Source: an uncultured bacterium
Lineage (GTDB): Bacteria; Planctomycetota; UBA1135; GCA-002686595
Direction of reading: 5' to 3'
Assembly: GCA_943787795.1 (NCBI GenBank)
Contig: CALSNU010000002.1
Coordinates: forward strand, 160,001 to 224,000
Length of the DNA stretch: 64,000 nucleotides
In this document: positions 23,775 through 30,854 of the stretch, piece after piece
Position numbering within the stretch: position 1 is the first letter of the stretch
Layout: every line of letters begins with the position of its first letter
The notes under the pieces: model-generated
Database searches by the model: none
Seen by the model: only the letters and a program-made list of their open reading frames with translations
Told to the model about the DNA's origin: nothing
Translations under genes and position numbers: made by a program

Positions 23775-24755
23775 TCACTGGAACATGATCTCGTAGCCGT
23801 CCGTGAAGTTGCTCGTCGCCGTCCCGGCCACAGCGTCCCGGTACCACGCCTGGAAGCTCCAGGTCTCGCCCGCCGACACGGCGACGAACCCGTTGGGTTG
23901 CGGGATCTGGGTGTTGTCAGCGGCGAGGGAGATCTCACCCGTCGCACCCGAGTTCTGGATCTGGCCAGCGCCGACGTAGCGGCCGATCGATCCGCCAAGG
24001 CAGAGGTTGCCCTGGCTCCCCCCCGGGTTTGCAACCGCACCCTGGGTCAGGGACGTCAGAAAGAAGCCGAACGAGTTCAACGGGAGGTCGCTCGCCTCGA
24101 GGACCAGGTCGTTGCTCGCCACAGAGTTGGAGCCTGAGGCGCTCATGGTCCCGGCGACTCCGGTCGAGTTCACCACCGCCGTGCAGTAGTTGGTCCCGAC
24201 GCTCGGCGCCGACCCCGTGCAGAACGATCCGTTCCAGACTCGCGGGGTGAACACGCTCCCCCCGACGAAGGGGGCCGAGCAGCTCGACCCCAGCTCGATG
24301 GTCATGTTGCCGTCCGTGAAGAGCTGGTTGGCTCCGGTGCCGTTGGTGTAGGGGTTGCCTCCAACGGTGTAGACGATGGCGACGCCCGCGACACCGCCAG
24401 GCATGAAGTCAAAGGGTGCGACGAGCGGCACAGGCGTCGGAGTGCCCTGGCCCGCGGCCAGCGCGGTGCCGTCTCCCTGGGCGACCAGGGTCCATCCCGT
24501 CGGGTCCTGCTCGAAGCCGGCATAGCTCCCTGATCGGGTCCACACCTCCAGGTTGACCGGCGACCCGGCCGCCACGTTGAAGTTGGCCTCGAGGCTCACA
24601 ACCGTGGTCGGGTTGAGCACCGTGACATCCATGTAGTTGGCCCAGCCGGTGGCACCGCCGTTGTTACTGACGAAGGTGGTCTCGAGGCAGGTCTGGGCGC
24701 TGGACGCTGCGCTGCAAAGCACAGCGGCGGAGATCGAGAGGAGCAGTCGCTTCAT
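23775..24755 (-). CDS. Secreted protein with shared C-terminal NSTG/FQAWYRD domain (copy A)
   Basis: Sec signal MKRLLLSISAAVLCSAASSAQ; C-terminal ~145 aa homologous to 28454 and 39784 genes. Confidence 0.9.
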   Translation of the reverse strand: MKRLLLSISAAVLCSAASSAQTCLETTFVSNNGGATGWANYMDVTVLNPTTVVSLEANFNVAAGSPVNLEVWTRSGSYAGFEQDPTGWTLVAQGDGTALAAGQGTPTPVPLVAPFDFMPGGVAGVAIVYTVGGNPYTNGTGANQLFTDGNMTIELGSSCSAPFVGGSVFTPRVWNGSFCTGSAPSVGTNYCTAVVNSTGVAGTMSASGSNSVASNDLVLEASDLPLNSFGFFLTSLTQGAVANPGGSQGNLCLGGSIGRYVGAGQIQNSGATGEISLAADNTQIPQPNGFVAVSAGETWSFQAWYRDAVAGTATSNFTDGYEIMFQ

Positions 24756-28453: not shown

Positions 28454-29533
28454 ATGCGCGCCTCCACCAACATCATCCTGTGGGCCTGCGGCCTCTTTGT
28501 CGCACCCTCGGCCACCGCACAAGTCGGGCTCAACCTCGACTTTGGACCGTCCGACGTGCACGGCACCCCGGGCCCAAGCGAGGGCGCCGCGGCCCAGGTC
28601 GGTGGCGCGTGGAACGGCGTCGACACGGACGCCCTCTCCGGCGGCACGTTCCCGGTCACGATCGCAGGGCTCGTGGACACGAGCGGCGTACCGACCCCTG
28701 TCACCCTGGTCATCAACGACCTCGGCACCGGGCTCCAGAGCTTCCTCTACGACGACCCCGCCACCGTCGGAGGCGACGACGCGCTCCTCGACGACCTCGC
28801 CTTCTTCGGGGGCGCGGCCACCCTCGAGATCCGGGGGCTCGCCGCGGGCCAGTACGACATCTTCACCTACGCCGCCGTCCCGAGCGGCGCCGACCACCGG
28901 ACCCGCGTCCGGATCCCGAGCTCGTCCGACCCTATTCAGACGGTGGGCGGCGACTTCTCTGGCGGGTACCAGGCTGGGGTGACTCACGCCCGGCACGCGG
29001 TCAACGTCGCGCCTGGCAGCGCCGTCACCCTCCAGCTCAACGTCGCGGCAGAGTTCATGTCACTCAACGGGATCCAGGTGGTTCCGTTCGGTGCCACGGG
29101 CGACCTCGGCGCCCGCTACTGCACACCGGGGGCGACCAACTCCACGGGCTTCCCCGGCGAGGTCTCTGCCTTCGGGAGCCCCCGCCGCGTCGACAACGAC
29201 GTCGCGCTCACCGCGAGTTCGCTCCCGACCAACACCTTCGGCTTCTTTCTGACCAGCCAGGATCAGGGCTTCACCGCCACCCCTGGCGGGAGCCTGGGCA
29301 ACCTGTGCCTGGGAGGCGCCATCGGGCGCTACGTCGGAGCGGGTCAGATCCTCAACTCCGGCACCAACGGATCCTTCACCCTCCCCCTCGATCTCGCGGC
29401 CACGCCGACACCCACCGGGCTCGTGTCCATCACCGCGGGCGAGGCCTGGAACTTCCAGGCCTGGTATCGGGACTCGCTCCTCGGCATCCCGCTCTCCAAC
29501 CTGACGGACGCGCTGGTCCTCACTCTGCTCTGA
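28454..29533 (+). CDS. Secreted protein with shared C-terminal NSTG/FQAWYRD domain (copy B)
   Basis: Sec signal ending ATAQ; YC...NSTG...GFFLTS...NLCLGGAIGRYVG...WNFQAWYRD...SNLTD. Confidence 0.9.
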   Translation: MRASTNIILWACGLFVAPSATAQVGLNLDFGPSDVHGTPGPSEGAAAQVGGAWNGVDTDALSGGTFPVTIAGLVDTSGVPTPVTLVINDLGTGLQSFLYDDPATVGGDDALLDDLAFFGGAATLEIRGLAAGQYDIFTYAAVPSGADHRTRVRIPSSSDPIQTVGGDFSGGYQAGVTHARHAVNVAPGSAVTLQLNVAAEFMSLNGIQVVPFGATGDLGARYCTPGATNSTGFPGEVSAFGSPRRVDNDVALTASSLPTNTFGFFLTSQDQGFTATPGGSLGNLCLGGAIGRYVGAGQILNSGTNGSFTLPLDLAATPTPTGLVSITAGEAWNFQAWYRDSLLGIPLSNLTDALVLTLL

Positions 29534-29542
29534 CCCCTCCCC

Positions 29543-29675
29543 CTGAGGACAGATCGACACTGAGGACAGATCGACCCTGGGGCCAGATCGATCCTGCGGC
29601 CAGATCGATCCTGCGGCCAGATCGATCCTGAGACGAGGTCAACCCTGAGAGGTCAACCCTGAGGCGAGGCCGACC
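29543..29675. repeat. 17-bp tandem repeat x~8 with drifting units (CTGAGGACAGATCGACA to CTGCGGCCAGATCGATC to CTGAGACGAGGTCAACC)
   Basis: Read directly; between convergent genes, no spacers. Confidence 0.9.
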
Positions 29676-29693: not shown

Positions 29694-30779
29694 CTAGCGC
29701 GAGGCCGACTCGAGCGGGAGCTCGGCCGCCCGGGGAACCGTCAGGATCCCCTGGGTCGCCAGGGCGCAGCGGATCACGACCGCGTCGTTCTCCGCCTGCT
29801 GCAGCTCGACCAGCTCGGTCTGCAGGCCCACGTTGGCAAGCTCGATGTACCCCTGCAGGAGGCGGCCCGCCCCCGCGGTGGTGGGCTGGACCGCGACGGG
29901 ATCCCCCGAAAGGGTCGTGGCGGCGTAGCCGTTGCTCTCGCCCTTCAGGTCCGAGGGGTTGCGGAAGACGTGCAGGCGGATCAGGCCGATCTGGTTCTGG
30001 ATGTTCCCCTCATCGAGGGAGTACACCTCACCGTCGGCGGAGATCGAGATGCCCTGGCTGTCCGGGGGGATCTGGACCTGGTCGCTGAGCAGGTAGCCCT
30101 CGGCGGTCACGAGGCGACCGTTGGCGTCCTGCCGGAACGTGCCGTTCCGGGTGTAGCGCTGCTCGCCGCTGGGGAGCTCGATCTCGAAGAAGCCAGCCCC
30201 CTCAACCCCGAGGTCGAGGGAGTTCCCCGTTAGCTTGAGGGCGCCCTGGGTCACGTCCAGCTGCACACCAGCGGACCGCGGGTGACGGACGTCGTTCATG
30301 GTGTCCGCGCTGGAGATCGGCAGCGGCCTGCGCCGCTTGTAGCCAGGGACCCCGAGGTTCGCGATGTTCTCGCAGTGCAGAGCGCACTGCTCATCGAGCG
30401 CAGCCAGCGCTCCCTTGAGTGACTCGACGCCAGCGCCCACCTCGACCCCATGGCTGGCCTCCACCGGCTGTGCGGTGGCCCCCGCCAGCGTGGCCAGGCG
30501 AAGCTGTTCCACCGTGCGGCTCAGCCCCTCGATTCGAGCGGCCAGCTGGATACCCCCGGCCGAGTCGACCTGCGAGGCCAGGCTCGAGCGCTCCAGGAGC
30601 GCCGCCCTGGCCTCTGCCTCCACAAGACGCATCTCGAGCTCCTGGATCTGCTGCTGCAGCTCGGCCCTCGAGGGTTCGCCCGTGTCCACCGGGTGCGCGG
30701 TCGTCGAGGGGCTGCTGGACCTCCCCTGGCAAGAGGCCAGCAGGAGAACGGCGGTGAGGGCAGTGGCACGCTGGATCAT
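29694..30779 (-). CDS. Lipoprotein with coiled coil fused to an FlgG/FlgF-like flagellar rod domain
   Basis: Lipobox LLASC; ENIANLGVPGYKR, QGALKLTGNSLDLGVEGAGFF, YTRNGTF...GRLVTAEGY, LQGYIELANV. Confidence 0.85.
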   Translation of the reverse strand: MIQRATALTAVLLLASCQGRSSSPSTTAHPVDTGEPSRAELQQQIQELEMRLVEAEARAALLERSSLASQVDSAGGIQLAARIEGLSRTVEQLRLATLAGATAQPVEASHGVEVGAGVESLKGALAALDEQCALHCENIANLGVPGYKRRRPLPISSADTMNDVRHPRSAGVQLDVTQGALKLTGNSLDLGVEGAGFFEIELPSGEQRYTRNGTFRQDANGRLVTAEGYLLSDQVQIPPDSQGISISADGEVYSLDEGNIQNQIGLIRLHVFRNPSDLKGESNGYAATTLSGDPVAVQPTTAGAGRLLQGYIELANVGLQTELVELQQAENDAVVIRCALATQGILTVPRAAELPLESASR

Positions 30780-30826
30780 GGTGAGTTCCTGGCTGGGGCG
30801 GGCGGCGTTGGCCGGGCGTGCCTGGA

Positions 30827-30854
30827 TCATCGGCCGGGTCCCTCCATTCCTTGA
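30827..30854 (-). promoter_or_regulatory. Sigma28 (FliA/SigD)-type promoter
   Basis: TCAAG-N15-GCCGATGA, about 48 nt upstream of ATG 30779. Confidence 0.55.

Follow-up and report, generated by a model that had tools for sequence, protein, structure and literature searches.

The window, by which we mean the whole 64,000-nucleotide stretch analysed here, from the genome (G000) of an uncultured planctomycetotal bacterium, carries on its minus strand, at positions 29694-30779, an open reading frame (ORF) encoding the 361 aa protein P0001. The lipobox, linker and rod-core motifs named in the first-pass annotation are all present in this ORF, and each motif quoted there was found: VLLLASC with Cys17, NIANLGVPGYKR, QGALKLTGNSLDLGVEGAGFF, YTRNGTF, QGYIELANV and TELVELQQAEND. 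P0001 matches the D1 family PF22692 with an E-value of 1e-22 and scores 147 bits with the FlgEFG subfamily model TIGR03506 (cut-off 70); its score with the FlgG equivalog TIGR02488, 145.8 bits, is below the cut-off of 252.75. The Pfam scan yielded no match in P0001 to the canonical terminal motifs PF00460 and PF06429. Among the 59 aligned family members, all 59 carry the D1 domain (PF22692/TIGR03506), 25 match PF06429 and two match PF00460. The start codon at 30779 is preferred, since the alternative upstream ATG (30830) falls within a conserved -10-like box (Table 1).

Table 1. Features of the P0001 gene and its upstream region (positions in the window).
Feature	Positions	Strand	Basis or remark
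Sigma28 (FliA/WhiG)-type promoter motif, TCAAG-N15-GCCGATGA	30827..30854	-	ends 47 nt upstream of ATG
Predicted SPII-type signal peptide and lipobox, Cys17, Gln at +2	30729..30779	-	sequence pattern
Tether: linker 18-37 (low confidence), predicted helix 38-100, linker 101-114	30438..30728	-	AF2
Re-shaped N-terminal D0 helix, residues 115-148, NIAN..GYKR at its end	30336..30437	-	AF2 and structural alignment
Short L-stretch hairpin, residues 149-177, without the 18-residue FlgG-specific segment	30249..30335	-	NIAN-to-QG spacing
D1 domain, apparent gene-conversion tract common with flgG, residues about 178-316	29830..30248	-	identity, trees, AU tests, quartets
Re-shaped Gly-capped C-terminal D0 helix, residues 317-345	29745..29831	-	conserved residues, length
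Low-confidence tail of the close subclade, and stop codon	29694..29744	-	missing in 28/33 copies; pLDDT 47-62

Pfam scans of the 47 ORFs of the window recognised no second flagellar gene, as claimed at first pass: its two MotA/ExbB matches belong to a TonB-ExbBD cluster, and the Pfam families of the neighbours include DUF1553, DUF1549 and PSCyt1, which, along with the names given to homologues, assign the organism to the Planctomycetota. The canonical flgFG genes lie elsewhere in the genome, in a flgD-E-F-G-A-H-I-J-K-L cluster ~277 kb away on the same contig (C2), and a second flagellar cluster is located on contig C7. ORF lists of 13 family loci, read by eye, revealed no flagellar neighbour, and the gene neighbourhood varies among copies, being conserved in the close subclade only. 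The sequencing runs that contain DNA of the window are marine. An 810-nt contig from an independent study is identical to 30041-30850 (0 differences) and spans the promoter, the N-terminus and the D1 junction. Contigs from RNA runs of two studies cover parts of the gene; these may derive from DNA and were not counted as expression.

Two further features of the region were observed. Short tandem repeats (GAGGACAGATCGAC x2, GGCCAGATCGATCCTG x3 and GAGGTCAACCCTGA x2) occupy 29548-29661, between convergent gene ends, and are absent from the downstream DNA of close relatives. The ORFs at 23775-24755 (minus strand) and 28454-29533 (plus strand) encode signal-bearing proteins with a common C-terminal domain of ~140 aa (W.FQAWYRD motif) and no Pfam match; this domain, possibly a lineage-specific sorting or surface domain, occurs in dozens of copies in the genome and its relatives.

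Architecture and distribution of the family

The lipobox cysteine is found at residue 15-21 in the 34 genome-derived copies, with Gln at +2 in 23 of them. Of 38 candidates taken from genomes, 34 fit the lipobox pattern and one more has a lipobox recognised by eye (35 in total), the rest being one sequence cut by a contig end and two ambiguous ones; the count of 59/59 Cys in alignment A3 is circular, as its members were picked by lipobox. The SPII features, i.e. a basic n-region, a hydrophobic h-region and the conserved lipobox Cys, were seen by sequence pattern. The genome possesses lspA, and no match to LolA (PF03548) was obtained in this 85%-complete assembly. Homologues of the same architecture exist down to about 25-45% identity and keep the lipobox, so the N-terminal extension is conserved. 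The first-pass view of a rod homologue with a conserved lipoprotein architecture, encoded outside the flg operon of a genome that has flgFG, is hence borne out.

The AF2 model of P0001 (59 sequences; overall pLDDT 87) consists of a flexible linker and a 63-residue helix (pLDDT 72-95 across residues 41-100), followed by a D0 helix, a short hairpin, D1 and a second D0 helix (pLDDT 81-98). Comparison with FlgG, as proposed at first pass, revealed a full rod fold: residues 113-346 superpose on residues 1-253 of Salmonella FlgG with a Z-score of 26.9 and an rmsd of 1.7-1.8 over 232-233 aligned residues, and Foldseek is in agreement with a FlgG-like fold. A homo-trimer prediction for residues 34-346 scored 0.02, which is not evidence either way. 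The reported coiled coil stood in part, in that the predicted 63-residue helix has leucines at its a/d positions, but some 40% of copies (14/34) have a short tether instead. Indeed, tether length from Cys to NIAN is bimodal (55-81 aa in 14 copies, 110-135 in 19 and 231 in one), which suggests that the long helix is dispensable.

The terminal helices, described as degenerate in the first-pass annotation, turned out to be conserved in a family-specific form. The FlgG-invariant residues Y6, V19, D20 and N24 are kept in none of the 34 copies, and the C-terminal D0 helix has residues of its own (G344 and L/M340 each in 33/33 copies, Q327 in 28/33). The C-terminus extends 31 residues past SNV in 28/33 copies, as compared to 38 in 37/37 FlgG proteins, and is thus seven residues shorter. 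On these residue patterns, the D0 helices are best read as rebuilt, not decayed, and the fact that the D0 hairpin is retained in full, with invariant residues specific to the family, suggests an axial-type contact over a bare D1 module. The L-stretch is short, with a NIAN-to-QG spacing of 40 in 13/13 copies measured, against 58 in FlgG, 41 in FlgF and 57 in FlgE. The missing stretch matches the 18-residue FlgG-specific segment as defined in the accessible part of PMC13737085; this segment is described there, and in the accessible part of PMC6681337, as stiffening the rod and aiding P-ring loading. The latter text also reports that the Salmonella L-stretch locks adjacent D1 domains and that polyrod mutations are concentrated at its tip.

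In the genus of the window genome, 15 copies occur in 12 of 18 genomes, the gene not being found in the other six, and in the sister family 21 verified copies occur in 16 of 75 genomes, with up to three per genome. Confinement of the family to the genus was considered and rejected as the effect of a narrow profile, a wider profile having reached the sister family. With 7-12 candidates scored in each genome, the search of the other genera in the window's family yielded no copy, nor did 300 genomes of the phylum yield a full-length copy outside the order; as only seven candidates per genome were scored in the latter, the gene is to be regarded as not found, rather than absent, outside the order. 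All verified carrier genomes possess flgG or flhA. The cultured strain Poly30 has two members (P0021 and P0039), both named 'FlgG' at NCBI; the accessible part of its preprint (bioRxiv 10.1101/817700) states that no flagella were observed in this strain.

Whole-gene dN/dS values of 0.36-0.54 in six pairs of close species indicate purifying selection where decay had been looked for, and flgG is far tighter (dN 0-0.03). The notion of a decaying pseudogene, or of an assembly chimera between flgG and an unrelated lipoprotein gene, draws on P0010, P0012 and P0013, which are chimeric on short contigs, and on assemblies that break within the shared tract; it is nevertheless highly improbable, given frames intact in two families, a conserved promoter motif and a dN/dS below 1, as well as the identical 810-nt contig across the N-terminal/D1 junction and the two copies on the single-contig genome G156. 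The window gene is therefore a real and maintained gene and not a pseudogene.

Several related sequences were noted alongside the family. P0005, P0008, P0010, P0012 and P0013 are lipoprotein/FlgG mosaics with differing breakpoints, of which the latter three are full chimeras on contigs of 1.2-1.9 kb and represent either assembly cross-overs or real recombinants. A 261-member Planctomycetota cluster in the Atlas is a lead only. Signal-bearing FlgG-like proteins of other types occur in Tepidisphaerales and Gemmata; P0174, P0176, P0187, P0221, P0230, P0233 and P0244 (one from Tepidisphaerales) have different termini and are perhaps independent Sec-exported rod derivatives. P0150, P0151, P0159, P0160, P0162 and P0165, one of them from Gemmata, are large or carry a signal and contain tandem arrays of 3-12 FlgE/F/G D1 domains, in some cases together with Ig, PKD or DUF11 domains or a weak T9SS tail. 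Non-flagellar use of the rod D1 domain has arisen at least twice.

Promoter motif and regulation

A motif of the form [CT][AC]AG-N15/16-RYCGA ends 32-65 nt upstream of the start codon in 30/34 copies, against a background of 38/3032 ORFs in the window's genome. The motif was derived from 13 copies, and its spacer was widened to 15-16 post hoc, after inspection of the sister-family copies; at spacer 15 it is present in 2/2 held-out genus copies and 7/19 sister-family copies, and at spacer 15-16 in 15/19 of the latter. The sigma28 (FliA/WhiG) consensus has boxes like TAAA-N15-GCCGATAA, and the family motif resembles it. Genome-wide scans were less informative, a weight matrix being noisy (133 matches) and the strict pattern showing no enrichment at spacer 15 (19 sites, versus 3-19 at other spacers), and the promoter claim consequently rests on positional conservation.

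The spacer-15 motif also lies upstream of motA in 16/17 genomes of the genus. In the window's genome, a sigma28-type motif is absent upstream of flgFG, the three flagellin genes and flgM (the flgM-like gene itself being borderline, at 25.3 bits versus a cut-off of 25). Since the motif is common to motA and absent before flgFG, the gene is probably regulated together with the stator genes and independently of the rod operon. A late flagellar timing is uncertain, as the flagellin genes are devoid of the motif and the genome encodes three FliA/WhiG-like sigma factors. A second FliA/WhiG sigma gene follows apt (G000:C2:30850-32305), with a sigma28-type motif upstream in 13/17 genomes of the genus, and it is possible that this apt-fliA/whiG operon is autoregulated. 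The three tandem flagellin genes (G000:C7:64067-67211) have a common upstream CGTGAACGG motif.

Relationship of the D1 domain with flgG

The D1 segment of the window gene is 81.4% identical at the nucleotide level to flgG of the same genome (G000:C2:467899-468320; 425 alignment columns), and nothing comparable is seen outside this tract. When 34 copies are compared with 37 flgG genes, D1 is on average 62% identical to FlgG of the own genus and, in the sister family, 61% identical to FlgG of the own family, as compared to 37-39% across groups (to the FlgG or the copies of the other group). D0 behaves in the opposite manner, with 36% copy-to-copy identity across groups and 22-28% to FlgG. The best FlgG match of D1 lies in the own group for 34/34 copies, and the FlgG of the own genome ranks first of 37 in 10/29 copies and among the top three in 21/29.

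Phylogenetic trees agree with these identities. In D1 trees the copies are nested with flgG of the host lineage, and D1 monophyly is rejected (AU p 8.5e-5 for DNA, 7e-55 for protein), whereas the D0 tree places 34/34 copies on one side of a branch with a support of 100 (69 columns, with FlgG as sole outgroup). Quartet sites from 45 non-independent genome pairs delimit the tract: concerted sites outnumber orthologous ones by 630 to 274 (138 synonymous) in residues 178-275, the signal is mixed in residues 276-316 (278 versus 337), and the orthologous pattern prevails in the two D0 helices (19 versus 1525 and 26 versus 1068). Taken together, these sequence comparisons indicate recurrent gene conversion with flgG of the host lineage that is limited to the D1 region, its direction, from flgG into the family gene, being putative.

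Exact runs of 46-92 nt with the own flgG occur in 8/29 copies (including 92, 80, 60, 55, 53 and 51 nt), and the own flgG is the source of the longest exact run in 10/29. For the window copy, the longest run (93 nt) is with flgG of genome G170, against 46 nt with its own, and for the G051 copy it is with flgG of another species (91 nt, against 47). Many copies have no long exact run with flgG, and some have drifted, with D1 identities of 49-57% and a dS of 1.0-1.8 to their own flgG that is saturated in one subclade. The longer runs with foreign flgG, the many copies without a long run and the saturated dS speak against conversion acting purely within each genome and suggest that it is episodic. 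Short-read assembly could lengthen single runs; it could not create the pattern at group level.

Gene conversion can be neutral, and the match of D1 with FlgG may therefore not be necessary for function. Neutral recombination between paralogues, the protein having a minor flagellum-associated role that does not involve a match with FlgG (e.g., capturing rod or hook subunits that have leaked, or reinforcing the envelope), would fit with conversion being limited to the region whose similarity still permits recombination, with the several copies that have escaped (dS 1.0-1.8) and with the moderate dN/dS. It leaves aside that the tracking of host FlgG persists across two families, between which FlgG D1 identity is just 41%, and we consider it unlikely.

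Proposed function and comparison with known systems

The first-pass annotation had proposed either an envelope protein or a rod-assembly regulator. The motA-type promoter motif and the apparent overwriting of D1 from flgG favor the flagellum-related option over a generic envelope protein, although the role would be a late one and not one in early rod assembly. The lipobox, tether and rod fold, the remodelled D0, the converted D1 and the motA-type motif all point to a functional lipoprotein of accessory role that evolved from a flagellar rod gene, a reading to which we assign a probability of about 0.9. It may be an accessory part of the flagellar motor; the full axial fold, host-matched D1 and motility promoter suggest that it acts on the motor from the periplasm.

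As to mechanism, a tethered, non-polymerising end-cap or chain terminator of the rod is the reading that we favor, tentatively. In the Salmonella paradigm, late genes are made once FlgM leaves, and the protein would likewise be synthesized late in flagellar development, after FlgM exit. A T3SS route is implausible for a signal-bearing protein; export would proceed by Sec and LspA, leaving the protein lipid-tethered in the periplasm. There it would dock, through host-matched D1 contacts, on an exposed rod end, be it the tip of a growing rod, a rod whose assembly was aborted or a stub that remains once the flagellum is lost. The truncated Gly-capped helix, the missing FlgG-specific segment and the N-terminal tether would leave the next subunit no landing site, so that the docked protein would act as a membrane-tethered terminator or cap. 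The tether, clipped helix and missing segment also argue against ordinary incorporation into the rod.

A more specific version, which we hold to be somewhat unlikely, is that of a new class of flagellar component, a lipid-anchored, Sec-exported mimic of an axial subunit that normally uses the T3SS. Acting from the periplasmic side, the mimic would cap the ends of rods or plug the pore of the rings, its fit to the host rod being kept by selected conversion from flgG. If true, such selected, domain-limited conversion would mean that the mimic is templated by the gene of its own target. The capping reading is tempered by patchiness (12/18 genomes of the genus), by a selection (dN/dS 0.36-0.54) that is loose, unlike that of a core assembly factor, by the flagella-less Poly30, and by the rod tip normally being under the FlgJ cap (according to the accessible part of PMC13737085).

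Two other roles have to be weighed against the cap. The tethered D1 could imitate the rod surface as a plug or decoy for the L/P-ring, either sealing the PL-ring pore after shedding or absorbing surplus Sec-exported FlgI, FlgH or FlgA so that no more motors are finished. The plugs of gammaproteobacterial relics are, in the accessible part of PMC6424402, not yet identified and thought not to be T3SS-secreted, and the lipobox and motA-type promoter are consistent with this role. P-ring binding, however, is non-specific, multivalent and aided by the very segment that is absent here (PMC13737085, accessible part), the net charge of D1 is not conserved (-2 to -8), and a lineage-restricted gene cannot serve as a general plug; hence, we regard this role as rather improbable. 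The second is a self-assembling or surface-displayed, adhesin-like envelope protein that is made in motile cells and has no action on the motor. The 3-12 D1 repeats in large secreted proteins with Ig, PKD or DUF11 domains (P0150, P0151 and P0159) imply that D1 can serve outside flagella, and a copy number of 1-3, the bimodal tether, the variable neighbourhoods and the family's own invariant D0 residues would suit such a protein. The lasting match with host FlgG in two families is left unexplained by it, unless that match is neutral, and the adhesin-like role also seems unlikely.

Axial flagellar proteins are regarded as T3SS substrates that lack a signal and polymerise. The present family as a whole has moved to a predicted Sec lipoprotein route and rebuilt its polymerisation helices, and has kept a motility-type promoter motif. 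If the cap or ring-pore plug is true, the family provides a named candidate for the questions of rod termination and relic sealing, and Poly30, with its two copies, is a cultured strain for testing. In the literature searched, parts of which were accessible in excerpt, no account was found of a FlgG paralogue that is a lipoprotein, or of gene conversion involving flgG (supplements of the Saltatorellota preprint may list copies), and the family is apparently undescribed.

Compared with FlgG (TIGR02488; PDB 7CBM, 8WKI), the family has the same D0-L-D1 fold over residues 1-253 and a D1 that is ~81% identical to that of the host. It differs in its lipoprotein signal and tether, the remodelled D0, a C-terminus seven residues shorter and the lack of the 18-residue segment, as well as in its location outside the flg operon, its own sigma28-type motif and a score below the equivalog cut-off. 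By these features the family belongs to the FlgE/F/G fold superfamily and is not FlgG, and some of the genes annotated as 'FlgG' in these genomes are misnamed. With FlgF it has the short L-stretch in common (a spacing of 40, versus 41 in FlgF), but its D1 is FlgG-type (71%, versus 34% to the own FlgF) and it has a signal peptide.

FlgH of the Salmonella basal body is likewise a Sec-exported flagellar lipoprotein (PMC13737085, accessible part), of a fold unrelated to the family protein. The FlgH encoded here (G000:C2:466222-466845; loci L133-L178) has a cleavable signal of the AxA type. A conserved lipobox Cys is missing at 46/46 FlgH loci read in the taxonomic family of the window genome, 12 of which have a Cys inside the signal only, in contrast to the lipoprotein FlgH of Salmonella. 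Replacement of a missing FlgH lipid anchor was rejected as a role for the family, since FlgH is without a conserved lipobox even in genera that are devoid of the family gene. The PL-ring relic plug, in the accessible part of PMC6424402, resembles the family in being proposed as non-T3SS-secreted and in occupying the place of the rod, and differs in having been observed in gammaproteobacteria.

The family also invites comparison at the level of the gene. Duplicate flagellins, tuf genes and pilin cassettes are bacterial paralogues that evolve in concert, and the tract-wise conversion seen here is similar. Unlike in those cases, homogenisation affects a single domain, and the two partners, a T3SS substrate and a predicted lipoprotein, differ in their route of export. 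Whatever its function, the family is a clear example, in bacteria, of concerted evolution restricted to one domain of proteins that leave the cytoplasm by different routes.
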